NCBI GenBank assembly: GCA_964518965.1
Contig: CAZFJP010000003.1
Coordinates: 25,508-89,507, forward strand
Length of the DNA: 64,000 nucleotides
Source of the DNA: an uncultured Candidatus Saccharibacteria bacterium
Lineage (GTDB): Bacteria > Patescibacteriota > SOKK01
Reading direction: 5' to 3'
Shown here: piece after piece, positions 7,497 to 62,400 of the stretch
Numbering within the stretch: position 1 is the first letter of the stretch
How the letters are laid out: each line of letters begins with the position of its first letter
Notes under the pieces: model-generated
The model's database searches: none
Seen by the model: the letters and a program-made list of their open reading frames with translations, nothing else
What the model was told of the DNA's origin: nothing
Translations under genes and position numbers: made by a program

Positions 7497-7609
7497 TTTT
7501 AGATGCAAAATCCAAAACGTAAAACGCAAAAGCTGTGGTATAATTTGTAGGAGAGCCTTGTTCAGAAGGTTACTTTGTGTTTTGCCTTTTGAATTTTGAG
7601 TTTAATTTT

Positions 7610-7696
7610 GGGGATGTGGCGGAATTGGTAGACGCGCAGGCTTGAGGGGCTTGTGGCCGTAAGGCCATGAGAGTTCAACTCTCTCCATCCCCACCA
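7610..7696 (+). tRNA. tRNA-Leu(GAG), type II, CCA encoded
   Basis: GGGGATG acceptor pairs with CATCCCC. Anticodon loop TTGAGGG. Long variable arm. T-arm GAGAGTTCAACTCTCTC. Confidence 0.8.
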
Positions 7697-7797
7697 GTCT
7701 AAATTTCATCATTGGGATTTAATCAGAAGTTAATTAACAAGATTCTATAGACTGGATTTAAATATTTTTGATTAGTATAAATGATGAAATTTAGGCT

Positions 7798-7872
7798 GGC
7801 GTCGTAGCCAAGTGGTAAGGCAGCGGTTTGCAAAACCGTTATGCGCGAGTTCGAATCTCGCCGACGCCTCCA
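7798..7872 (+). tRNA. tRNA-Cys(GCA), CCA encoded
   Basis: GGCGTCG pairs with CGACGCC. Anticodon loop TTGCAAA. T-arm CGCGAGTTCGAATCTCGC. Discriminator U. Confidence 0.85.
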
Positions 7873-7908
7873 AAAAGAAAGTTGGAGATTAAAAGTTAAA
7901 GGATAAAA

Positions 7909-8505
7909 GTGGAAATCATCAAGCTTCTACAGGAAAATATCCGAGAGGTTGCTTGTGAGGTTGTTTCGCGGCTGAAAGACAATCAGGTTGGAGTAATTCC
8001 AAGTGATACGAGTTATGGGATGGCAACCTTGATTCGCAGGGAGAATATTGATCACTTGTTAAAGATTAAAGGCAGATCAAGGAGGAAACCAATCTCGGTT
8101 TTTGTTTCTTCCCTTGAGTTTCTGGATGAGCTCGCGGTAGTTGATTATAATCAAAGGCAGTTTATCAAGAACCGTTTAAACAAATCACATACCTTTGTTC
8201 TGGAATTGGAATCGCAATTTAAAGATCAGTACAAGGATATTGCTCCCGACGGGAAAATTGGTATTAGGATTGTTGGTGTTCCTTTAATTCGAGAGATACT
8301 TAAAAAACTGAATGAACCAATCACTGCTACTAGTGCAAATCTCAGTAACCATACTAATTGTTACTCGCTCAAAGGATTTCTCAATCAGTTTGAAGATAAG
8401 GCAGTACAACCAGATTTCTTCATTGATGCTGGCAAACTGCCTTATTGCAGTCCTAGTACTGTGATTGATTTAACCACGAGACCCTATAGAATTATTCGCA
8501 AATAG
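7909..8505 (+). CDS. tsaC: L-threonylcarbamoyladenylate synthase TsaC/YrdC family
   Basis: YrdC-like motifs (GVIPSDTSYGMA...). Size of 198 aa is typical. Confidence 0.65.
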   Translation: MEIIKLLQENIREVACEVVSRLKDNQVGVIPSDTSYGMATLIRRENIDHLLKIKGRSRRKPISVFVSSLEFLDELAVVDYNQRQFIKNRLNKSHTFVLELESQFKDQYKDIAPDGKIGIRIVGVPLIREILKKLNEPITATSANLSNHTNCYSLKGFLNQFEDKAVQPDFFIDAGKLPYCSPSTVIDLTTRPYRIIRK

Positions 8506-8596
8506 AGTAAGTCATGCCATACGACAGAACACTCTTTGTTGGTGAATTATTGCAACAACGGATAGTTTTATCGATGTCCGATTTAGATTTAGTCAC

Positions 8597-8713
8597 GGGT
8601 TCGTAGCTCAGTTCCCGCCAGAGGCATGCTCCTGAGGCGCATTCGCCCTCTGGTGAAGGTCCGTCTTTGGCGGAGGTTACCTGCCTGCCGGCAGGCAGGG
8701 AGTGCCTCGTTTT
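8597..8713 (+). pseudogene. Duplicated tRNA-Val 5' fragment (nt 1-17) plus a 100 nt structured GC-rich insert, immediately upstream of the intact tRNA-Val(TAC)
   Basis: GGGTTCGTAGCTCAGTT occurs at 8597-8613 and again at 8714-8730. The intervening 100 nt contain two hairpins: CCGCCAGAGG...CTTTGGCGG, and the perfect palindrome CCTGCCTGCCGGCAGGCAGG. Confidence 0.6.
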
Positions 8714-8790
8714 GGGTTCGTAGCTCAGTTGGTTAGAGCGCCTCGTTTACACCGAGGAGGTCAGAGGTTCAACTCCTCTCGAACCCACCA
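8714..8790 (+). tRNA. tRNA-Val(TAC), CCA encoded
   Basis: GGGTTCG pairs with CGAACCC. Anticodon loop TTTACAC. T-arm AGAGGTTCAACTCCTCT. Confidence 0.85.
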
Positions 8791-8926
8791 TGCTCTGCAG
8801 AGCAAACTTAAAAATTAGAACGTAAAAGTTAAAAGAGAAATTCCGGTTTATGCTATAATAGATACGATTTTGTGAGATATTGCTGCATTGTTTTAAGTTT
8901 TACATTTTACGTTTTAATTTTGAAAT

Positions 8927-9002
8927 GCCGAGATAGCTCAGTTGGTAGAGCACGGCTCTGAAAAAGCCGGTGTCCCCAGTTCGATCCTGGGTCTCGGCAC
9001 CA
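8927..9002 (+). tRNA. tRNA-Phe(GAA), CCA encoded
   Basis: GCCGAGA pairs with TCTCGGC. Anticodon loop CTGAAAA. T-arm CCCAGTTCGATCCTGGG. Confidence 0.85.
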
Positions 9003-9101
9003 CTAAACAACTTAAAACTTAAAAATTAAAACGTAAAAGCTAAATCCAAAAGACCCGAATTTACTTTTTAAGTTTTACGTTTTAACTTTTGAGTTGTTTA
9101 C

Positions 9102-9176
9102 GCGGGAGTAGTTCAGTAGTAGAACGCTTCCTTGCCAAGGAAGAGGTCGCGGGTGCGAATCCCGTCTCCCGCTCCA
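9102..9176 (+). tRNA. tRNA-Gly(GCC), CCA encoded
   Basis: GCGGGAG pairs with CTCCCGC. Anticodon loop TTGCCAA. T-arm GCGGGTGCGAATCCCGT. Confidence 0.85.
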
Positions 9177-33189: not shown

Positions 33190-33360
33190 ATGGCAGAAAA
33201 AGAAAATAGGGTTACATTAGTTTGTGAAGAATGTAAGGAAGTAAATTACTTCACGAATATTAATCATAAAAATGTTAAGGACAAATTGAAATTAAAGAAA
33301 TTTTGTCATCGTTGTAAAAAACATACTGTTCATAAAGAAAGTAAGTTCAAGAAGAAGTAA
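33190..33360 (+). CDS. rpmG: 50S ribosomal protein L33 (56 aa; below the ORF-track length cutoff)
   Basis: MAEKENRVTLVCEECKEVNYFTNINHKNVKDKLKLKKFCHRCKKHTVHKESKFKKK shows the typical bL33 Cys4 pattern. Confidence 0.75.
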   Translation: MAEKENRVTLVCEECKEVNYFTNINHKNVKDKLKLKKFCHRCKKHTVHKESKFKKK

Positions 33361-33405
33361 GTTAGTTTTATTTTTACATTTTACATTTTAATTTTTAAGT
33401 TTTTT

Positions 33406-36904: not shown

Positions 36905-38287
36905 ATGAAATGGATTATCGCTGTTTTACTGGTAGCGAATGCCGCTTGGGGGTATCTTATCCCCCAGACAGGCGAATTGGATGTCGACGGGGTAACTCTC
37001 GTCATTGGCGCGGAAATAAACAAACCGGACGGGGAAGATCCCCGAAAGTTAATCGGGAGTGTCTTGGACGCGGATAGCGGCCGGTCATTTGAGGTGCGGG
37101 AGAAGATCGCCAATGCTATTAAAGCGGCGGAGATCTCTCCGGAACTGGATGACCAAGAAGGTCGTTGGAAGCGGGCCAAGGATGCGGTCAAGGATTGGGA
37201 AGATCGCTTGGCACTTGCTCGCGCTTTCAAGGACGAGCTGGCGAGGCATGCTACTACGGCAGCGGTATATTTTTCCATGGACCCGGCTCAGTATGAGCGA
37301 ATGCCGGATCCCTTCGGGGCAATCCAAACACTCTTGGATGACTTTAACGACCGTGTTGCCGACATTATGGCAACCGATCCTAAGCTCCTTGAGGGTGTCG
37401 CGGCTAGTTTAATGGCATTGCGCCGCAATGCCGATCAGTTCCCCAAAGGTCTGAATAAGGATGTTGAGAAGTGTTGGGGGATTCTTATCGGCGAAGGGAA
37501 ACATCCGGAGTGGTGGGACGAAGACGTCAAAGCGGTCGCTTTAGCTGCGGAGGCGAAAAATCCCCTGCGTGAGACTAAGCCCGCTGTTGCGACGGCTCTC
37601 CCATCGCCGGTTAAGGAAACCCCTGTGTCTGTACCCGCGCCTACGCCTTCTACTCCGGTCCCAACGCTGGAAGTTGATCTCGAAGAAGCCGGGATTCTAC
37701 CTCCGCCAGAAGAAAAGTATAATAAAGAAACATCTCCTCCGGTTGAGGAAAATACGACGACTGTCGCAACGGAAGTTACTTCTTCGACTGAAGTGGTTAC
37801 GACAGAAACGTCTGTGACCTCGCCGGAAGTAGTAGCGACTAAAACGACGGAGGCGCCGACCGAATTTGTATCGGTAGAAGAACTGACAGAAGGAGTATCC
37901 GAATCTTCAGAACCTCCTTCTGCCGAATACTCGGTAGCGGACTTTCGGCGGTTAGACCTAAGCTCCAAGAGCGCTGTCGTTGACGTCATCGCCAAAAAGG
38001 AATCCTGGTCCGATGCGGATTACGAAATTATTTTCCTCTCGTTAGGATTGAATGACGATCCTAACGACGAGATTGCCGCGAAGACCTGGGAAGTAATTTG
38101 CGCTCGCTATCGCGGGTCGCAGACCTCCGAGCGGGAAGTGATTCTTGCTAAGGTGCGGGAATTCCGAAATCAAAACAACCGGAAGTTTTCTTCCCGTAGA
38201 TGTGACTTCCTGCTCAAGTATCTCGAAACTCTAAATAAACCGTTTATCAAAAAGCCCTCCCCCGGGAGGGCTTTACTCTCTTGTTAG
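36905..38287 (+). CDS. Secreted acidic protein with a Thr/Ser/Pro/Glu-rich linker (GC-rich island 2)
   Basis: The start is placed at MKWIIAVLLVANAAWG (signal peptide), with RBS TAGGAGG 8 nt upstream. The ORF track starts earlier at 36773. About 55% GC. Confidence 0.5.
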   Translation: MKWIIAVLLVANAAWGYLIPQTGELDVDGVTLVIGAEINKPDGEDPRKLIGSVLDADSGRSFEVREKIANAIKAAEISPELDDQEGRWKRAKDAVKDWEDRLALARAFKDELARHATTAAVYFSMDPAQYERMPDPFGAIQTLLDDFNDRVADIMATDPKLLEGVAASLMALRRNADQFPKGLNKDVEKCWGILIGEGKHPEWWDEDVKAVALAAEAKNPLRETKPAVATALPSPVKETPVSVPAPTPSTPVPTLEVDLEEAGILPPPEEKYNKETSPPVEENTTTVATEVTSSTEVVTTETSVTSPEVVATKTTEAPTEFVSVEELTEGVSESSEPPSAEYSVADFRRLDLSSKSAVVDVIAKKESWSDADYEIIFLSLGLNDDPNDEIAAKTWEVICARYRGSQTSEREVILAKVREFRNQNNRKFSSRRCDFLLKYLETLNKPFIKKPSPGRALLSC

Positions 38288-38432
38288 TTAAGCTAAAATT
38301 AACTGCCAAGAGCGTAAATTGGGCAATTCTAACAAGTTGGAACAGTTAAAAGTGTTTTTTGTAGGTAGTCATTGGGTGAATCAAAGATTTCTGGTGAGGA
38401 AAATCGGAAGCAAAATTACTGCAAAATTACTC

Positions 38433-38627
38433 TTGACAAGTTTCATAAGATGTGCTATACTCTTTGGTCAGCCCGGAAACTAATAGAAAAAAAGCGCGTA
38501 TTCAAGCGAAAATACTCTCTTCTTTCTGTTAGTTTTAGGGTAAAACCTAGGGCTAAACAGCGTACCAAACTCAATACTCAATCCATTATCCATTCAACTC
38601 CCCTAAGCAGGGGAAGGAGGTTCAGCC
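38433..38627 (+). promoter_or_regulatory. Promoter (TTGACA-17-TGcTATACT) plus about 160 nt conserved structured leader; copy 1 of a duplicated cassette
   Basis: About 90% identical to 39441-39625 through the RBS and into the signal peptide. Contains hairpin CCCCTAAGCAGGGG adjacent to the RBS GGAAGGAGG. Confidence 0.55.
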
Positions 38628-39323
38628 ATGCGTTACTTAGTTATCGTTTTAACCCTCTCCCTGCTCTGCGCGGGGAGCGTGTTGGCGGAGACGACCTACC
38701 ACCATTGCGACCCCTTCACGGCCGGCCACTTGGTCGACGTGCCGGGTGTCGCGATGGCTTTGGTCCAAGGCGGTATTCCCGCCGGGACCGAGCCGTCTAC
38801 CCTTAAGAAGTTTTTAGAGGAGGGGGGCGTCAACGAAAAAATTCTTGAGGGATTTTTCGCCCAGGCCGATAAGGTCGGGGCGCCGATCCCAGAGGGACTC
38901 CACTCCTGGGCTTCCGTTGCGCCGGTTTTTATCAAGGCGCTAGAAGGCGGCAAAGTCGAAGTCCAGGAGATCAGCTACGGTGAAGTGATGTGGTGGGTCG
39001 GCTATGTGCCGAGTCACCCGATTAACGCCGTAGCGATTTTAACCCCCCCGCACTACTGGGCACTCGACTATCTTTTGCGGGTGTACGTTGTCCGCGGGGT
39101 TATAGTCGAGGTCGCAGGGGAGAAAGCCGAGTTGTTTATCGGTTTCATGGAGCCCTGCGGGAACTTAGTGTTCCTCGGCGGGGAAATCCTCGAGGAACCC
39201 GAGCCCGGGGTCGGTCAAAAAGGTCCGGCTCCGGGAAAGCCGCTGAAGGTCGGCAACAAACCGATCCGTAAGCCCATTATCGGGCATGAAAACTGGGTCG
39301 GTCCCTCCTTCGGCGGACCGTAA
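38628..39323 (+). CDS. Secreted hypothetical protein (paralog 1, shares signal peptide MRYLVIVLTLSLLCAGS)
   Basis: ORF with signal peptide and RBS GGAAGGAGG. GC-rich. Confidence 0.5.
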   Translation: MRYLVIVLTLSLLCAGSVLAETTYHHCDPFTAGHLVDVPGVAMALVQGGIPAGTEPSTLKKFLEEGGVNEKILEGFFAQADKVGAPIPEGLHSWASVAPVFIKALEGGKVEVQEISYGEVMWWVGYVPSHPINAVAILTPPHYWALDYLLRVYVVRGVIVEVAGEKAELFIGFMEPCGNLVFLGGEILEEPEPGVGQKGPAPGKPLKVGNKPIRKPIIGHENWVGPSFGGP

Positions 39324-39440
39324 CGCCAACAACGCCAACACAAACTGCCCCTCCTGAATCGCAAGATTCGGAGGGGCTTCTATCCTTTTTTGACTAAGCA
39401 ATTATTCAATTATTCAAAAGAGGCGTAGAATCAACTACTA

Positions 39441-39625
39441 TTGACAACTTGTCTACTTTATGCTATACTCTTTGGTCAGTCCGGAAACTAATAGAAAAAA
39501 GCGTGTATTCAAGCGAAAAGGTACTCTCTTCTTTCTGTTAGTTTTAGGGTAAAACCTAGGGCTAAACAGCGTACCAAAAAACTCAACCCATTCATCTCCC
39601 CTAAGCAGGGGAAGGAGGTTCAGTC
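39441..39625 (+). promoter_or_regulatory. Copy 2 of the promoter plus conserved leader cassette
   Basis: TTGACA (39441-39446), 17 nt spacer, TATACT (39464-39469). The leader is near-identical to copy 1. Confidence 0.55.
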
Positions 39626-40483
39626 ATGCGTTACTTAATCGTTTTAACCCTCTCCCTGCTCTGCGCGGGGAGCACGTTTGCCGACCAAGGCGCCGGCGAG
39701 GATCCGTATCAGGACCTCTCGGCGACCAATCTCGCGGAACTGGACGCATTTGCGTTCGGGCCCATGCGGGAGCCGGACCGGGCAGTTTCTTTCTACGTTT
39801 CGCACTTAACGCGGGACGAGAAAGAATATCTCGGGACGGAGTACGAGCAGAATCTTCGGATTCTCTCGGAAACGTTCGGGATAGGGCTTGACCCTTGGCG
39901 GGACGACCGCTATGGGTTCAAGTTCGGAGCTTCCGTTACGGTACAAGATTTACTGTCGCGTAACAGCTCCGGCAAATCCTATCCCCTCGGTTTCGTGAAA
40001 TTCCGTCCCGTTTATTTCTGGAAGTTCTATGACGGGATGAACGACGGTTCGGTCGGAGATCTCGAAATCGGGTGTAGCGGTTTATACCGCTGGACCCGTT
40101 TCACGGATCTACCCGACACGGTTAAACCCGGCGCCGCTGTGGAACCGACCTTACAGGTTCGGTACCGCAGCGAACGTTGGGGCGTTTCGGCGATGGGAGG
40201 TTATTTGTATAACATCCAATCGAACCAGCACGAAGATTTCGTGCAGGGTAGAACGGATCTGTTCTGGCTCTGGGGTAAATCCTTGAGTCATGAGGTTAGC
40301 TCCTCCCTCGGCGTTGGCTATTTTAGGGCCACCGAGGGCCGCGACTATGCCTTAATTCCGAGTGTGACGCTCACGGACACCCTCTGGGATACCGTCGAGC
40401 TGACCGCCGGATACGACGCGGGACTGGTACAACATCGGCTTTATGCCAACACCTGGCGCTTCGGCGCTGGCGTTGCCTTCTAG
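39626..40483 (+). CDS. Secreted hypothetical protein (paralog 2), possibly beta-rich, outer-membrane-like, ending in a C-terminal aromatic residue
   Basis: Same signal peptide (MRYLIVLTLSLLCAGS). The mature part diverges. Ends ...GAGVAF. Confidence 0.5.
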   Translation: MRYLIVLTLSLLCAGSTFADQGAGEDPYQDLSATNLAELDAFAFGPMREPDRAVSFYVSHLTRDEKEYLGTEYEQNLRILSETFGIGLDPWRDDRYGFKFGASVTVQDLLSRNSSGKSYPLGFVKFRPVYFWKFYDGMNDGSVGDLEIGCSGLYRWTRFTDLPDTVKPGAAVEPTLQVRYRSERWGVSAMGGYLYNIQSNQHEDFVQGRTDLFWLWGKSLSHEVSSSLGVGYFRATEGRDYALIPSVTLTDTLWDTVELTAGYDAGLVQHRLYANTWRFGAGVAF

Positions 40484-40510
40484 CTTCATGCTAGCGCCGA
40501 CGACATCAAA

Positions 40511-48232: not shown

Positions 48233-48260
48233 GCTGAGGTAGCTTAGCCTGCCATGTAGT
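48233..48260 (+). pseudogene. tRNA-like 5' fragment (GCTGAGGTAGCTTAG) followed by CCTGCC...
   Basis: Acceptor plus D-stem-like 15-mer. The same junction motif is seen at other fragments. Confidence 0.3.
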
Positions 48261-48327
48261 GGGACTTCACAGAAGTTTTAAAGATTATTTTAATGTCTTA
48301 TCTCATTGTAAATTCAAATTTTCGTGT

Positions 48328-48370
48328 GCCGACGTAGCTCAGCCCGCCTATGTCCAAAAGGCTTCGGCGG
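48328..48370 (+). pseudogene. tRNA-Thr 5' fragment (nt 1-15) plus a CCGCC...GGCGG hairpin module
   Basis: GCCGACGTAGCTCAG is identical to the 5' end of tRNA-Thr at 48437. CCCGCCtatgtccaaaaggcttcGGCGG follows. Confidence 0.55.
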
Positions 48371-48436
48371 ACTGGTAGCAAATCCTGATAATTTATTTAT
48401 TTTTAATTTTTAAGTTTTAATTTCTAACTTTCGCCC

Positions 48437-48512
48437 GCCGACGTAGCTCAGTTGGTAGAGCAGCGGTTTCGTAAATCGCGGGTCAGCGGTTCGAATCCGC
48501 TCGTCGGCTCCA
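48437..48512 (+). tRNA. tRNA-Thr(CGT), CCA encoded
   Basis: GCCGACG pairs with CGTCGGC. Anticodon loop TTCGTAA. T-arm AGCGGTTCGAATCCGCT. Confidence 0.8.
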
Positions 48513-56499: not shown

Positions 56500-56626
56500 C
56501 TCTGAAGTTAGTTAATATAGATTATACCAAAAAATAGAAGTCCTAAAATTAAGCGGCTCCTTTTGGATTTTGCATTTTTCGTTTTGAATTTATTTTGTCC
56601 ATCTAATCTGTAAGCCGAGTTCTGTT

Positions 56627-56732
56627 CCCCGCCTAAGTTTCATCGTTGAACTAAATCAAGACTCACTAGAATTGTCAGAACTACTGAACTGATAATGTCT
56701 TGATGGATGTCAATGATGAAATTTAGGCGGGG
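56627..56732. repeat. Palindrome of the 'TTTCATCATTGA...AATCAAGAC' family (copy C), immediately 3' of the RNase P RNA
   Basis: ccccgcctaagtttcatcgttgaactaaatcaagac ... gtcttgatggatgtcaatgatgaaatttaggcgggg. Confidence 0.6.
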
Positions 56733-57092
56733 CGATAATCATCTCTCTAGTCCCCGACTCGCATCGGGGATCAGGCGACCAACCCGTCCCATCCGCTTCT
56801 GGCGGAGAGGCCTACTTGGTCTTACACCAGGCAGGGTTTGGCTCTTCTAAGTATCACTGCTTAGAACTGGGAGCTTTTACCTCACTCTTTTCACCCTTAC
56901 CTTAATACCGGAATGGTATAAGGCGGTTTAAGTTTCTGTGCCACTTTCCCTTGTCGTTTTCTTTTATCTAGAAGGCAAAGAAAACAACCGGTTTGGATTA
57001 CAAACTGCCTTTTTCCCAATAATGAGGGGATATGGTGCTCGGACTTTCCTCCCTGTGCCATAGGACGCAGGGCGATTATCCGATTAGATGGA
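56733..57092 (-). ncRNA. rnpB: RNase P RNA (bacterial type A-like)
   Basis: Minus strand carries the P3 hairpin CCCTGCGTCCTATGGCACAGGG, then GAGGAAAGTCCGAGCACC (P4 5' strand), then ...GGTAAGGGTGAAAAGAGTGAGGTAAAAGCTC (P10.1-P12 consensus-like). GATAATC pairs with GATTATC as a P2 candidate. An upstream promoter is TTGACA-17 nt-TAAAAT (57100-57128 rc). Both ends are approximate. Confidence 0.7.
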
Positions 57093-57443
57093 CATTCTGA
57101 TTTTAGCTTAAAATGATGTTATTGTCAAGAAGATACCATATTATTGAAAAAATGTCAATTCTCAAGGCAATTGGGAGGGACTGGAGGTTTTTGCTGTATC
57201 TCTACATTTTAGGGTTTATCTGCTAAAATAAACTTGCAATGACAAGTAGAAGATATGAAGATTGGGAGAAAAAGGTTTTGCTTAGAGTAAGGGCTCGTGA
57301 GAAGAAAAAGCAAATGATGCCTGTTTCTGGCAAGGGAGTTTTTCAGTTACAAAAATTAATTGGGCGATCTAAATTTAAAAAGAATAATTCTAAATAAGGA
57401 TTTTTAGGGTTTTGGGTTTTGCGTTTTGAGTTGAGTTTTGAGA

Positions 57444-57494
57444 CGGGGATTGGCCCAGTTTCCGCCAGGGGCGGATGCGCCTCTGGCGCACACC
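57444..57494 (+). pseudogene. tRNA-Pro 5' fragment (nt 1-17) plus double-hairpin module (copy 1)
   Basis: CGGGGATTGGCCCAGTT, then TCCGCC-agg-GGCGGA, then TGCGCC-tct-GGCGCA. Confidence 0.55.
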
Positions 57495-57530
57495 TTAGTT
57501 TATCTACATAATTTTTAAAGAAGGGACTAA

Positions 57531-57791
57531 ATGTTTTTTGTCTATTTTTTGAGAAGTAGAAAGAATCGGAAGATTTATACTGGAATGACAGCAAAGATAC
57601 CTTGTGAGAGATTAAAGGAACATAATTTAGGATCGAACAAATGGACGAGAAAAAATGGACCATTCAGTTTGCTCTATTATGAGAAATATTTCTGCAAAGC
57701 TGATGCTATGCAAAGAGAAAGATTTTATAAATCGGGGTTTGGTAGAAAAATCAGAGATTCAATTATTGTTGCTTTAACAAGATTTCAATGA
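57531..57791 (+). CDS. Stand-alone GIY-YIG nuclease family protein (UPF0213/YazA-like)
   Basis: FFVYFLRS.KNRKIYTGMT......RLKEHNLG...WTRKNGP..LLYYEKF......A..RE...K motif pattern in an 86 aa protein. Confidence 0.6.
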   Translation: MFFVYFLRSRKNRKIYTGMTAKIPCERLKEHNLGSNKWTRKNGPFSLLYYEKYFCKADAMQRERFYKSGFGRKIRDSIIVALTRFQ

Positions 57792-57876
57792 GAATAGTTA
57801 GTATTTTAGAGAGCAAGCCTGATTTCTCCGCCAGGGGCGGATGCGAAATTTGGTTTTTCTTTTATAAACTATTTTC

Positions 57877-57993
57877 CGGGGATTGGCCCAGTTTCCGCCA
57901 GGGGCGGATGCGCCTCTGGCGCACACCTGGCGTATCTCTGGTGCACAGGATGTGTTTTAAGATTTACTCTTTCTTTTATCAAGTTATTTTTTC
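57877..57993 (+). pseudogene. tRNA-Pro 5' fragment (nt 1-17) plus double-hairpin module (copy 2), immediately upstream of the intact tRNA-Pro(GGG)
   Basis: Identical 47-mer CGGGGATTGGCCCAGTTTCCGCCAGGGGCGGATGCGCCTCTGGCGCACACCT. A third partial copy of hairpin 1 lies at 57827-57845. Confidence 0.55.
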
Positions 57994-58071
57994 CGGGGAT
58001 TGGCCCAGTTGGTCTAAGGCGCACGCATGGGGTGCGTGAGATCGTGAGTTCGAATCTCACATCCCCGACCA
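57994..58071 (+). tRNA. tRNA-Pro(GGG), CCA encoded
   Basis: CGGGGAT pairs with ATCCCCG. Anticodon loop ATGGGGT. T-arm GTGAGTTCGAATCTCAC. The D-stem has one mismatch. Confidence 0.7.
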
Positions 58072-58087
58072 TTAAAGAATTAAAAGG

Positions 58088-59080
58088 ATGCCTAAGTTTT
58101 ATGAGACAATTGGGGTTGCGATCATTCTAACGCTTCTTATGGGAGGAGGTTATTTTGCATATCACGGACAAGGAGATACTCGTGATAGTTTTGGAGTTGA
58201 GAATTATTCTGAATCAGGTCAAGCTTCTGATTTGGATGTGAATGAGAAACTTTTTTATCAAGCGGTTGCAAGTGGCACTTCTGATGAGCAGATAGCAGTT
58301 TTGCAAAAGGATCTTAATCGTTTGAAAAAGCACGAACAAAGGAATTATTGGCTGATTGTTAAGTTAGGTAAGCAATTTCCGGAGAGTTTTAAGCAAGGAT
58401 ACGAGCTTGAGGATGTTTTTAGTTTTGGTAGCTTGTTACCGGCGTTAAATACCGAAGGAAGTGTAAGTGAGAATATTGCAAAGGTGTTAGGGGAAGATCT
58501 TTCGCAAAAGCAGGGGTTGTTTTGGGAGGATAAAATTGTTTTGCTGAACAGGGTTTATCTGCCTTTTAAGAAGGAGAAGTTGCTTAAACGTTTGGATAGT
58601 CCCACTGAGTTTGATCGTAATTTTCTTGAAGCGCATCCGGATTTTTTTTGGGATTGTCTTACGGAGTTAAACGGTTGGCTGAAGGGGACGGAGGTAGTTT
58701 TGGCTTTTAAGGATGAGGCGCAAAAAAAATCCCGCTTTGAATTGCGGAATTTGTTGCAACGTTTGTATTATCTGGAAGTTTATTTGCGTTATCTGAAAGC
58801 AGAAGAGCCGGATTATTGGCAGAAGTTGGTTTCGGAAAAAGGGGTGGTGTTTATGCTTCAACGTTTGTTTTATCTTGCTAATCAAACTGCTGAAGCGGGT
58901 CGTAAATCCAAGATTTTCAAGGAATATCAATTGGCTTTTAAGCGAGCAACGGATTGGAAGAATCGGGATGTTGTGAATCAATTGGTGAGTGAAGCGGGGA
59001 TTGGTAAGTTTAAGACTTTGCTGCTTTCTGATGCAAAGTTGCGGGAGAAGGGGATTGTGATTGAGTTGAGAGATTTTTAA
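58088..59080 (+). CDS. Hypothetical protein with N-terminal TM anchor
   Basis: 330 aa ORF lying between two tRNA-Pro loci. No recognisable motifs. Confidence 0.4.
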   Translation: MPKFYETIGVAIILTLLMGGGYFAYHGQGDTRDSFGVENYSESGQASDLDVNEKLFYQAVASGTSDEQIAVLQKDLNRLKKHEQRNYWLIVKLGKQFPESFKQGYELEDVFSFGSLLPALNTEGSVSENIAKVLGEDLSQKQGLFWEDKIVLLNRVYLPFKKEKLLKRLDSPTEFDRNFLEAHPDFFWDCLTELNGWLKGTEVVLAFKDEAQKKSRFELRNLLQRLYYLEVYLRYLKAEEPDYWQKLVSEKGVVFMLQRLFYLANQTAEAGRKSKIFKEYQLAFKRATDWKNRDVVNQLVSEAGIGKFKTLLLSDAKLREKGIVIELRDF

Positions 59081-59095
59081 TTTTTAATTTGTTTC

Positions 59096-59285
59096 CGGGG
59101 ACTGGTCTAATGGCTAAGGCACACGATTCGGTTTGCCTGCCGCCAAATTATTCTCGGGGATTGGCCTAGTGGATTAAGGCGCACGCTTCGGGTGCGTGAG
59201 ATCATCGGTTCGAATCCGATATCCCCGACCATGGCTCTGGTAGGCGGGGTTCGTGAGATTCTGGGTTTGAGTCCCGGGTCCCCGA
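59096..59285 (+). other. Split tRNA-Pro(CGG). The 5' half (positions 1-36, 59096-59131) and the 3' half (positions 37-73, 59249-59285) are separated by a 117 nt insert that itself contains an intact tRNA-Pro(CGG).
   Basis: The halves reconstitute a canonical cloverleaf: acceptor CGGGGAC/GTCCCCG, D-stem GTCT/AGGC, anticodon stem CACGA/TCGTG with loop TTCGG|GT, T-arm CTGGGTTTGAGTCCCGG. No CCA is encoded (CTA follows). Confidence 0.55.
59155..59231 (+). tRNA. tRNA-Pro(CGG), CCA encoded (nested inside the split tRNA-Pro)
   Basis: CGGGGAT pairs with ATCCCCG. D-stem GCCT/AGGC. Anticodon loop TTCGGGT. T-arm ATCGGTTCGAATCCGAT. Confidence 0.8.
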
Positions 59286-59472
59286 CTAAGGACAGTTTTT
59301 CTTTTTGAGAGTGTTTCAGGTTTTTCTTTAATATAGTATGGGTTTTGGAATTAGGGGATTGTTTGAAGTGGTGGTAAGGTAAAAGGTAGACGATATTGCT
59401 GGGTTTTTTAATTGGTATATTCTAGAGTTGGCTATATTTTGGGGCTAATTGACGGCTTATTAATAAAAAGTT

Positions 59473-62400
59473 ATGGCCCAAAAATTTTTACACAATGCAA
59501 ATAACGATTCACTTCCTGAATTAGCTGATAATCTTGTTTCGGAAACAAAGAAAATGCTTCATGAAACCAAAACGGAGGAAGATTTAAGAATTGGTTTTGA
59601 AAAACTTTTGGAACCGATAAGGTCCGAATTAAATCTAAATTCAACCCCAAAATACGAAAAATCTGTTTATAGTGGTCGTTCAGATGCAGTACACGGACAA
59701 GTAATAATTGAATATGAACCGCCAAAATCATTTTCATCAAAAAAGAATATAAATCATGCTTACGAGCAATTGGTAAATTACTTGTCCGATGAAGCAAAAG
59801 AAACAAAATTAACTCAATTAGTGGGAATAGGTTTTGATGGCGAGCAGATTTTCTTTGTCCAATATCAAGACAAAAACAACAAAAAGATAGACAAGGCAAA
59901 ATTTTTTATTCGTGGACCTTACCATTTTACTCCTGAAAGTGCCAGAACTTTTTTAATTCATCTACGTGCTCTGTCTCGGCTTCCGCTTAGCCCTGAAAAT
60001 TTGGCACAAAAGTTTGGTCCCCAAAGCGAACTTGCACAAAAAATGGTTTCCTCTCTTGCCAATGCTTTGGAATATTGGGTGGATCAAACACATATTCGCA
60101 CATTTTTTAATGAGTGGAAAAGATTATTTGGTATTGTTTATGGAGAACAATTTACTAGTGGATATCAAGAAAAAGAGGCAGAAAAGCTTTCAAAACTTTA
60201 CAAAGTAGGGAAAGAAACTGAATTTCAAGAGCTTTTATTTTCCATCCATACTTACTTTGCTTTTTTAATGAAACTTATTGCTGCCGAAATTTTGACTTTA
60301 AGAGAAACATCTTTTAGTTCATCTCTTGCTTCAGAACTAGCTCATATTTCGGAGGATGAACTTAAAAGCAATCTTTCCGATATAGAAAACGGTGGAATTT
60401 ATGCCCAAAAAGGAATTACTAATTTTTTGGAAGGTGATTTTTTCCGCTGGTATCTTGATGCTTTTGAATCACCGGAACTAAAAGACGCGATTAGAGAAAT
60501 TGCCAGATGTCTTTCTGAATTTGAACCGGCAACCAGCACTTTAGATCCGGTTTCAACTCGCGATCTCCTCAAAAAACTTTATCAGTATTTAGTCCCGCAG
60601 GAAGTCCGCCATCGCCTTGGCGAATATTATACACCCGATTGGTTGGCGGAATTACTACTAAATGAAGTTGGCTACGATGGCAACACCCTTAAAAGATTTT
60701 TGGACCCGGCTTGCGGCTCCGGAACATTTTTAGTTTTGGCAATTCAGCGCGCAATAAAACATGGCAGAGAAAAAGAAAAGATCTCTGATCTTGAAATCGC
60801 AAAAAGAATCGTCGCCAATATCTGGGGATTTGATTTAAATCCTTTGGCAGTTATTGCCGCGCGAACCAATTATCTTTTTGCTTTGGGAGATTTGGTAAAT
60901 GAACTGGAACGAGTGGAAATCCCAATTTACCTTTGCGATTCAGTTTTATGGCCAGAACAAATAGGGGGACAATTAATCCTCGGTTTAGAGGGAGATGTCA
61001 GAAAAATTAAAACTTCAGTTAAAGAGTTTTTCGTTCCAAGAATTTGGACCGATGAGTTTAAGTGGCGAATGGGCGAAGCCGCAGAAATTATTGAAAGAGA
61101 TGTTAAACTTCAAGTTGATTCAGAAATAGCATTAAAACATTTTAAAGATGTTGGCTTGGCTTTTCGTGGTTGCGAGAATGAGGTTAAAAATTTTTATAGT
61201 CAAATTTTGGACTTGGAAAAAGAAAGAAAAAACGGTATTTGGGCAAGATTTCTTAAAAATTTCTCTGCGCCGATAGTAGCTGGAAGAGAAAAATATGATT
61301 TTGTCGTTGGCAACCCTCCGTGGATTATGTGGCAATATTTGTCAATAGAATACAGAAAGGCTACACAAAATTTATGGGAGAATTATGGTCTTACAAAGAT
61401 CGGGCAAGTACGAAATGTCCTGATTAGGGGTAGAAGAGATTTTTCAATGCTTTTTGTTTATGCTTCCGCTGACTATTATCTTAAAGATGGAGCAAAATTA
61501 GGATTTTTAATAACCCAAGAGGTTTTTAAATCCAAAGGGGCGGGTGAGGGATTTAGGAGATTTCAGCTTGGCGAGGGTAAATATCTTAAAGTATTAAAAG
61601 CCCACGATTTAGTTTCCATTCAGCCATTTGAGGGCGCAACAAATAAAACAGCGGCAATAATTCTTAAAAAGGGAGAAAAAACAAAGTATCCTGTGCCTTA
61701 TATTGTTTGGTCAAAGAAACAAACCATGGGGAAAATCGCTACAGATAAACTTTTAGAAGAAGTAGTTCCTATGCTTTCTAAAAAACGACTCCTTGCTAGA
61801 CCAATTGGTTCAGAAACAGGAGCCTGGCAAACACAAATACAGGGTATAGTTATTAATATTGAGGGACAAAATTATTATAAAGCACATGCTGGAGCTTATA
61901 TTTCTCCTTATGGGATTTTTTGGCTAAAAGTAAAAAGTATACTATCAGATAATAACTTATTAATTGAAAATTTTACTGAAAAAGTAAAAACAAAAATTCC
62001 AAAAACAGAAGCAGTGATTGAGCAGGATTTAGTTTACCCAGCGATACGTGGCTCAGATATTCAAAAGTGGAAGGTATTACCTCAAATCTATGTCTTAATC
62101 ACTCACCCTGCATCACAGACCCCGTATATAGAAGAAGAGATGAAAAAGCAATGGCCGAGAACTTATAGTTATCTGATTAACTTCAAAAACATTTTATTGC
62201 AAAGAGCACTTTATAAACACTTTCATGAGAAATCAGACAATTCTTTTTATGGACAACGTCTTTTTGGAAATTATACTTTTTCAAAATATAAAGTTGTGTG
62301 GAAGCGAATGGCTGAAGACTTAATTTCCGCAGTTGTTTCTCAACATAAAACTTTATTCGGTTATAAAATAATAATACCTGTTGAAACGGTTACTTTCTTT

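Follow-up and report, generated by a model that had tools for sequence, protein, structure and literature searches.

A complete tRNA-Pro(CGG) gene in the anticodon loop of a second, apparently decaying tRNA-Pro(CGG) gene of a Patescibacteria genome, and its counterparts in other genomes

How does a complete tRNA gene come to lie within the anticodon loop of another gene with the same anticodon, and which of the two is likely to serve the cell? The question is raised by a locus from an uncultured Candidatus Saccharibacteria bacterium (assembly GCA_964518965.1, contig CAZFJP010000003.1, positions 25,508 to 89,507), in which a complete tRNA-Pro(CGG) gene, here called the inner gene or guest, is enclosed by the two halves of a second tRNA-Pro(CGG) gene, the outer gene or host. 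The arrangement is referred to as a nest, and the whole stretch of 64,000 nt that was analysed as the window. A first-pass annotation made from the letters alone had described the nest with coordinates and sequence that proved accurate, and had left the choice between a disrupted gene, an unusual intron and a permuted arrangement. The parts of the nest are, in order:

59096–59131, + strand: 5′ half of the outer tRNA-Pro(CGG), positions 1–36, with T at position 11 (59106), ending in TTCGG
59132–59154, + strand: left flank of the insert, 23 nt, consisting of TTTG, the left end CCTGCCGCC (59136–59144) and an A/T-rich leader AAATTATTCT
59155–59231, + strand: inner tRNA-Pro(CGG), complete with encoded CCA, found by ARAGORN and, at full length, by Rfam RF00005 (62.6 bits)
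59232–59248, + strand: right flank of the insert, 17 nt, consisting of TGGCTCT and the right end GGTAGGCGGG (59239–59248)
59249–59288, + strand: 3′ half of the outer tRNA-Pro(CGG), positions 37–73, plus CTA at the place of CCA; T-loop TTTGAGT, T56 at 59268

When the outer halves (59096–59131, 36 nt, and 59249–59285, 37 nt) were joined, ARAGORN recognized the product as a tRNA-Pro(CGG) with an acceptor stem of 7 bp, a D stem of 4 bp, an anticodon stem of 5 bp, a T stem of 5 bp and the loop TTCGGGT. The halves stand in normal order, and a permuted arrangement is therefore not supported. In its intron mode (-i0,300) the program returned the inner gene only, and the outer gene is therefore documented by the explicit joining of its halves. 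The insert comprises 117 nt, of which 77 nt are tRNA, and its flanks contain the previously noted GCCTGCCGCC and GGTAGGCGG. Owing to a run of G at the site, the junction can be placed anywhere from 34/35 to 36/37, a slide of at most 2 nt. The outer gene begins 15 nt past the stop codon of an open reading frame (ORF) at 58088–59080. The 220-nt nest region was found to be identical in three independent assemblies from different samples, the flanks of which diverge by at most 1.6% from the window; all three strains have the nest, and an assembly artefact or chimera is thereby ruled out. As the window contains a tmRNA and a class A RNase P RNA (Rfam), and its SecD is nearest to proteins labelled 'Patescibacteria group bacterium' (80% identity), the organism is a bacterium of the Patescibacteria.

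The state of the outer gene was assessed against uninterrupted homologues. A metagenome scan with the joined anticodon arm gave 12 contigs (L075–L086) that carry an uninterrupted tRNA-Pro(CGG) of the outer sequence type, and relative to these the outer gene has C11T and C56T, both at columns invariant in 12/12, as well as a D-loop indel. Its 3′ end reads CTA (59286–59288), where 10 of the 12 homologues have CCA. Both C56 and CCA are kept in all 13 other tRNA genes of the window and both are lost in the outer gene, which overturns the initial impression that its halves bear no other mutations. The three point changes are all C-to-T, leaving stems that can still pair as G·U and removing universal features. 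With halves that rebuild one gene, invariant features that are lost and relatives that carry the gene uninterrupted, the outer gene looks like a young pseudogene, and the view of it as a disrupted gene was borne out. The inner gene, on the other side, has the canonical T-loop GTTCGAA and CCA, matching the other 12 window tRNAs. The two genes are 77% identical and show compensatory stem differences, and the nest is therefore not a recent duplication in place.

Only one orthologous locus (L006) was available for comparison, since the 330-aa protein encoded just upstream of the nest has a single, distant homologue (65% identity) among 5.8 billion proteins. This locus is syntenic with the window (RNase P RNA, 52-aa ORF, tRNA-Pro, ORF, tRNA-Pro), and both of its tRNA-Pro genes are plain, with no nest, fragment or GIY-YIG gene. 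The second of them begins 5 nt past the stop codon of the ORF, compared with 15 nt past the orthologous stop for the outer gene in the window. The first-pass annotation had held that reads of the inner tRNA only, together with an uninterrupted copy in relatives, would mark a simple insertional pseudogene. This is borne out in part: the gene at the syntenic position of L006 is a plain tRNA-Pro, though with the anticodon GGG, and uninterrupted genes of the outer type come from the 12 metagenome contigs. As a separate observation, the anticodons of the syntenic tRNA-Pro pair are swapped, running GGG..CGG in the window (57994–58071, 59155–59231) and CGG..GGG in L006 (589–666, 1758–1835), and the upstream gene retains the same T-arm in both. 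The sequences suggest an exchange of anticodon arms or a whole-gene replacement.

Whether the nest is an isolated oddity was addressed by examining each of 170 tRNA genes, drawn from the window and from the fetched loci, for halves on either side that would together make up a tRNA. Besides the one in the window, four other nests were found, giving five nests in four contigs:

L076: tRNA-Pro(CGG) in tRNA-Pro(CGG), at the same loop position as in the window; insert of 116 nt that starts with CCTGCC and ends with GGCAGGCGGG
L076: tRNA-Arg(CCT) in tRNA-Arg(CCT), in the D-loop; insert starts with CCTGCCCGCC and ends with GGCAGGCG
L021: tRNA-Leu(GAG) in tRNA-Leu(GAG), in the D-loop; insert ends CCTGCACC and GGTGCGGG
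L075: tRNA-Pro(CGG) inside a degraded tRNA-Pro-like outer gene, the anticodon loop of which is wrecked

Leaving aside L075 with its wrecked host anticodon loop, four clean nests (including that of the window) could be compared, and in each of them guest and host have the same anticodon according to ARAGORN and are only 70–77% identical. They thus represent different alleles of one isoacceptor and not local duplicates. The Pro nest of L076 reverses the roles seen in the window: its guest is of the window's outer type and its host resembles the window's inner type. A second insertion, likewise a hairpin (CGCGCCCGCC...GCGGGCGGG), interrupts the Arg host on the same contig, and the presence of visibly dead hosts (L076 Arg, L075) beside whole-looking ones is the mix of ages that would be expected of relics. 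A 2-nt GG overlap is the only possible target-site duplication at the Pro nests of the window and L076, and no clear one was seen at the D-loop nests.

The ends of the inserts were also found to be conserved. The pattern CCTGCC(C)RCC...GGYAGGCG is common to three nests, that of the window and both of L076, and encloses three different guests; the terminus AGGCGGG is furthermore shared by the window insert and the Pro insert of L076. As a negative control, viral contigs were scanned with the pattern CCTGCCNNCC-N(75–105)-GGYAGGCGG, which gave at least 120 chance matches, none enclosing a tRNA, whereas every match in the Patescibacteria set encloses one. The kinship of the nest flanks with other tRNA-fragment modules having CCNGCC junctions, proposed earlier, is real. 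CCNGCC was rejected as a stand-alone signal, being too common (90 matches compared with 63 expected) and meaningful in the junction context only. In the window, the 23-nt and 17-nt flanks pair with −19.8 kcal/mol (shuffle p = 0.0025), and in a ranking of flank pairing among 158 tRNA genes, with a median of −4 kcal/mol, the window nest came 2nd, the L076 Pro nest 3rd and the L076 Arg nest 7th. The minimum-energy fold of the window nest consists of two nested cloverleaves, with a helix of 10+4 bp stacking on the outer anticodon stem. At both ends of the insert the pairing reaches the very last base (U37–G153 through C46–G144 in nest numbering, and 4 more), and because 4 of the 14 pairs are G·U the flanks make a better helix as + strand RNA than as inverted repeats in DNA. 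The recurrent architecture, the conserved ends and the cognate tRNA as target go beyond what could be seen in the first-pass annotation, and its label of a simple insertional pseudogene is right yet incomplete, as the insert belongs to a recurrent family.

Two further places in the window carry partial versions of the same junctions:

8597–8713, + strand: half-nest at tRNA-Val(TAC), consisting of tRNA-Val positions 1–17, a CCCGCC...GGCGG hairpin, an empty palindrome CCTGCCTGCCGGCAGGCAGG (8680–8699) and tRNA-Val positions 22–34
48235–48436, + strand: two tRNA 5′ fragments of 15 nt each, GCTGAGGTAGCTTAG joined to CCTGCC and tRNA-Thr positions 1–15 joined to CCCGCC...GGCGG, upstream of a complete tRNA-Thr(CGT) at 48437

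The dead tRNA-Val copy breaks off in the anticodon loop and abuts a complete tRNA-Val (8714–8790), in effect a nest without its 3′ half, and the empty palindrome at 8680–8699 (CCTGCCTGCC-GGCAGGCAGG) has CCTGCC/GGCAGG ends as in the nest and no cargo. Junctions of a tRNA 5′ fragment with CCTGCC or CCCGCC lie at 8614, 48250 and 48343. The first fragment of the region 48235–48436, which is joined to CCTGCC, has no matching tRNA in the window.

A second kind of element was found in the sister tRNA-Pro locus of the window, upstream of the nest:

57444–57993, + strand: GIY-YIG cassette wedged in the sister tRNA-Pro locus, absent from the syntenic L006
57994–58071, + strand: intact tRNA-Pro(GGG) downstream of the cassette, a restoring copy found by ARAGORN and Rfam

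In this cassette, two identical 52-nt units (57444–57495 and 57877–57928) flank an ORF of 86 aa (57531–57791), each unit comprising tRNA-Pro positions 1–17, the hairpin TCCGCCAGGGGCGGA and a decayed remainder up to the anticodon loop; a third copy of the hairpin lies at 57827–57841. The ORF, at a distance of 1.3 kb upstream from the nest, encodes a GIY-YIG protein (Pfam, E = 8.6e-15) and is the only such gene in the window. The homologues of this protein come from Patescibacteria. Its nearest family is UPF0213, made up of small GIY-YIG proteins that are uncharacterised; the match to the group I intron endonuclease family stayed below threshold, and the cassettes lie outside group I introns.

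The same association was examined in 68 genome loci (L007–L074) from Patescibacteria and some other metagenome-assembled genomes, with an ORF of about 85 aa. GIY-YIG cassettes abut tRNA genes in 47/68 loci, together with duplicated tRNA parts. In 41/68 a tRNA on the same strand starts between −23 and +25 nt from the GIY-YIG stop codon, and in 15 of these 41 the two overlap by exactly 10 nt, the stop codon TAG being U8-A9-G10 of the tRNA; in another arrangement (7/68 loci), a tRNA ends 0–13 nt ahead of the GIY-YIG start codon. A 15-nt hairpin, YCNGCC-NNN-GGCNGR, is present in 59/68 loci, usually as a 30-nt double hairpin that follows CAGTT/TAGCT of a broken tRNA copy; over positions 18 to 77 this copy often matches its intact counterpart with 100% identity. 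A complete tRNA beside a broken copy of the same tRNA is thus a trait common to nests and GIY-YIG cassettes. In L051, an Asn gene is interrupted in its anticodon region by the nuclease gene together with a complete tRNA-Asn, and its 3′ half follows, which makes a nest that encloses the nuclease; L056 is similar and retains only the T-arm and the acceptor 3′ end. Nest and GIY-YIG cassette occur together, separated by 1.3 kb in the window and by about 50 nt in L021. The strict hairpin motif occurs in the window at 57461–57475, 57827–57841 and 57894–57908 and has no match in the nest, the ends of which may nevertheless be likened to one such hairpin split by cargo.

Several further features of the GIY-YIG loci were noted. 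The hairpin occurs as TCCGCC-NNN-GGCGGA or YCAGCC-NNN-GGCTGR, and its doubled form is a near-perfect palindrome (L007–L072). Its sites in dead tRNA copies are D-loop positions 17/18 and 12/13, sometimes the T-loop or the anticodon stem, and some nuclease ORFs read through it, which gives C-termini such as KGGPASGGG. In three loci (L013 2296–2458, L024 2289–2458, L056 2809–2980) a complete tRNA is followed by a terminator-like hairpin and an element of 110–150 nt, which begins with an antisense tRNA 3′ end in L013 and L024 and closes in all three with part of the T-arm, the acceptor 3′ strand in sense orientation and CCA. Seven tandem units of 103 nt (double hairpin plus tRNA-Asn 29–74) lie downstream of the GIY-YIG gene and intact tRNA-Asn of L070 (2855–3545). 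The tRNA-Asn downstream of the cassette is interrupted after GGCTGT (35/36) in L065 (~2760–2800) and L066 (~2820–2860) by a sequence that starts with GA..AAACGCAGC, as reported for group I introns, and the dead upstream tRNA-Asn copy of both loci is broken at the same 35/36 position.

We consider it rather probable that the nest, one of a recurrent class in Patescibacteria, arose when a palindrome-ended cassette with its own replacement tRNA disrupted a cognate gene, and that the inner gene works while the outer one is a decaying relic. The nested anatomy and its recurrence, the conserved ends, the matching anticodons, the decay of the outer gene and the company of GIY-YIG cassettes are direct observations; the expression and processing of the inner gene, the direction of insertion and the enzyme that mobilises the cassette are inferred. 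A cassette of 117 bp with GC-rich inverted ends (CCTGCC...GGTAGGCGGG) would have landed at position 36/37 (±2) of a resident tRNA-Pro(CGG) of a different type. What had been the transcription of the host gene would then run through the cassette, so that the inner gene would be expressed from the host's transcription unit. The paired cassette ends would form a stalk that lets the inner tRNA fold undisturbed by the outer halves, which are homologous to it. The inner tRNA would be freed by RNase P and by trimming at the 3′ end, and the outer halves would become leader and trailer and decay. Because the cassette supplies the same anticodon that it destroys, the insertion would be costless to the cell, which would account for only cognate-in-cognate nests being seen. 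This cognate-only pattern could arise through survival, matching cargo being harmless, or through copying, guided by homology, from an allele that bears the nest once the loop has been broken. Such a break in a tRNA-gene loop would probably be the work of the small GIY-YIG nucleases with which tRNA genes of these genomes are infested, and would either be repaired by copying the nest-bearing allele (homing) or capture the cassette directly. It is a more tentative suggestion, and one that could well be wrong, that the nests represent undescribed self-compensating mobile cassettes, palindrome-ended and carrying a whole tRNA gene, which enter the loop of a same-anticodon gene, replace the allele and are mobilised directly or via break repair by the nucleases of ~85 aa, the nest in the window being one fixed copy.

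Several observations weigh against this explanation. The nests are few, only five in four contigs, and the energy-minimised fold of the L076 nest does not yield nested cloverleaves. The outer gene of the window bears only three or four point changes, and therefore either the insertion was recent or decay is slow; the outer genes of the L076 and L021 nests look intact, and a role for the outer RNA may be considered on that account. The inner gene resembles the other tRNA-Pro genes of the lineage (the GGG gene of the window and those of L006) and the outer type is found elsewhere, while the outer gene occupies the ancestral position, so that it is uncertain, from the sequences, which of the two genes is the newcomer. 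A consensus scan found no usable promoter or terminator near the nest. Finally, the 117-nt insert contains no nuclease or transposase gene, and the GIY-YIG-bearing nests L051 and L056 are without CCTGCC/GGCAGG ends; the tie between nests and GIY-YIG genes is for these reasons one of association only.

Could the outer gene still be made into a tRNA? As a functional intron, the 117 nt would be removed and the outer halves ligated, and both tRNA-Pro(CGG) would be produced. All four outer stems do still pair, the insert sits in an anticodon loop with a closing helix that brings the exon ends together, some outer genes (L076, L021) look intact as mentioned, and self-splicing introns exist in anticodon loops of Patescibacteria tRNAs, where group I introns of 184–894 nt are located at 35/36 of tRNA-Asn and tRNA-Asp (Nakagawa et al. 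2026, PMC13011429). However, a group I intron was rejected, as the insert has no catalytic core (P3–P9) and at 117 nt is below that size range. The Rfam model Intron_gpI (RF00028) had no match at E ≤ 10 in 57500–60000, where only the two tRNAs matched Rfam; the search works, since a group I intron in L021 was detected by the same model. A bulge-helix-bulge (BHB) intron was rejected as well, the fold placing the junctions at single unpaired G's (36, 154) beside the continuous 10+4 bp helix, whereas a BHB has its splice sites in two 3-nt bulges with a 4-bp helix between them. To our knowledge, a tRNA splicing endonuclease and ligase are not expected in Patescibacteria. The loss of C56 and CCA from the outer gene, the damage to other outer genes (the extra insertion of L076 Arg, the wrecked anticodon loop of L075) and the lack of any obvious benefit from a second tRNA of the same anticodon also speak against splicing in a bacterial host, and the intron reading, which the first-pass annotation had entertained, is very improbable. 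Harder still to credit is a split tRNA, in which the outer pieces would stay bound to each other once RNase P and 3′ processing had released the inner tRNA, through pairing in the acceptor stem, the anticodon stem and the flank helix, and would serve as a tRNA in two pieces or as some other small RNA. The strong flank helix with its G·U pairs points to pairing at the RNA level, and a similar pairing of GC-rich leader and trailer occurs in the split tRNA halves of Nanoarchaeum; a break beside the anticodon would on the other hand abolish decoding, CCA is absent and C56 lost, ligation or BHB machinery is not expected in a bacterium, and outer genes decay in other nests.

The remaining alternatives concern the origin of the insert. 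Within 2 kb there are two tRNA-Pro genes as well as several fragments, and the anticodon swap relative to L006 shows exchange between paralogues, all of which would fit a one-off local rearrangement, for instance a duplication or gene conversion involving neighbouring tRNA-Pro paralogues, in which no dedicated cassette took part. This is nonetheless quite improbable given the identity of only 77% between inner and outer gene, the compensatory differences in their stems and an insertion clean to the nucleotide, and given that insertion point and insert ends recur in a second organism and the ends once more in a third nest, around a different tRNA. The insert might instead be the remnant of a GIY-YIG homing cassette that once held a nuclease gene and a replacement tRNA as in L051 and L056, the gene having later been deleted. 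L051 has exactly such a layout and L056 part of it, a GIY-YIG cassette lies 1.3 kb upstream, and homing elements usually lose their nuclease gene after fixation. Yet the 23-nt and 17-nt flanks retain no trace of an ORF or of the 30-nt double hairpin (the hairpin being present in 59/68 cassettes), the ends of L051 and L056 differ as stated above, and the three nests of ~105–117 nt that share their ends speak for a unit in which no ORF was ever present, which makes such a remnant unlikely.

Some other features of the window are recorded here in their own right. The RNase P RNA (56595–57091, − strand) measures 497 nt compared with the 367 positions of its model and contains near its 3′ end a palindromic insertion of ~106 nt (56627–56732) bounded by CCCCGCC...GGCGGGG, GC-clamped like the tRNA inserts. 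The A/T-rich motifs TTTTACGTTTTAA and TTAAAACGTAAAA occur in inverted pairs in spacers near tRNA genes (7500–9100, 33360–33400, 57400–57440). The tRNA-Gly(GCC) at 9102–9176 (Rfam, 69.9 bits) has the T-loop TGCGAAT, with G at the universal U55. A GC-rich island at 37000–40500 (up to 0.51 compared with ~0.38), where the first 29 bases of a GC-rich stretch are common to two ORFs (38649, 39644), is possibly acquired DNA.

No description of the nest insert family was found in the literature, and it is the recurrence of the family that makes it of interest. The GIY-YIG genes of 85 aa fused to tRNA genes form a much larger set than the nests and were likewise found undescribed in the searchable literature, which returned nothing on an association of GIY-YIG and tRNA genes in Patescibacteria or the Candidate Phyla Radiation. 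If the proposed explanation is true, cassettes with their own replacement overwrite tRNA genes in minimal genomes, and selfish DNA can inhabit single-copy essential genes without splicing. It would then explain the fragment-littered tRNA loci of Patescibacteria, imply that annotation pipelines may miss or mis-call tRNAs at such loci, and provide a bacterial model for the origin of split, interrupted and duplicated tRNA genes.

The nests share traits with several known systems. With the group I introns of bacterial tRNA genes they have in common the phylum and the anticodon loop as target, 36/37 being a known intron site in tRNA-Arg(CCU), but the insert is without a ribozyme core, consists mostly of a tRNA gene and gives no sign of splicing. 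Archaeal BHB introns transpose among the tRNA genes of Thermoproteales, and Nanoarchaeum has split tRNA genes; as in the nests, short GC-rich inserts occupy positions in the D-, anticodon and T-loops and a helix joins the halves. Here, in contrast, the organism is a bacterium, the junctions have no BHB and an intact copy always accompanies the interrupted one, for which reason no splicing is needed. Analogies with integron attC sites, IS200/IS605 and REP/RAYT systems were dropped, since no matching recombinase or end structure was present. Miniature palindromic elements that insert inside genes, such as the Rickettsia palindromic elements and miniature inverted-repeat transposable elements (MITEs), are likewise small, occur several per genome and within functional genes, and have inverted ends conserved between copies; the nest differs from them in its cargo, a complete tRNA matching the anticodon of the target, in having no clear target-site duplication and in a helix that is better in RNA. 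Phage T4 encodes free-standing GIY-YIG homing endonucleases, notably SegB in its tRNA gene cluster, which promotes the inheritance of its own tRNA region through break repair. A GIY-YIG nuclease gene among tRNA genes is the shared trait, whereas the Patescibacteria protein of ~85 aa is a catalytic domain alone, encoded within duplicated tRNA genes and with a conserved double hairpin of 30 nt in its flank, and the nest itself has no nuclease gene. Some integrative elements use tRNA genes as insertion sites and contain a duplicate of the part that they displace. Compared with these, the nest has no integrase, is only 117 bp long, carries a whole tRNA and not a 3′ segment, and lies in a loop and not at the 3′ end, and yet both take a tRNA gene as target and bring along what restores the gene that is disrupted.

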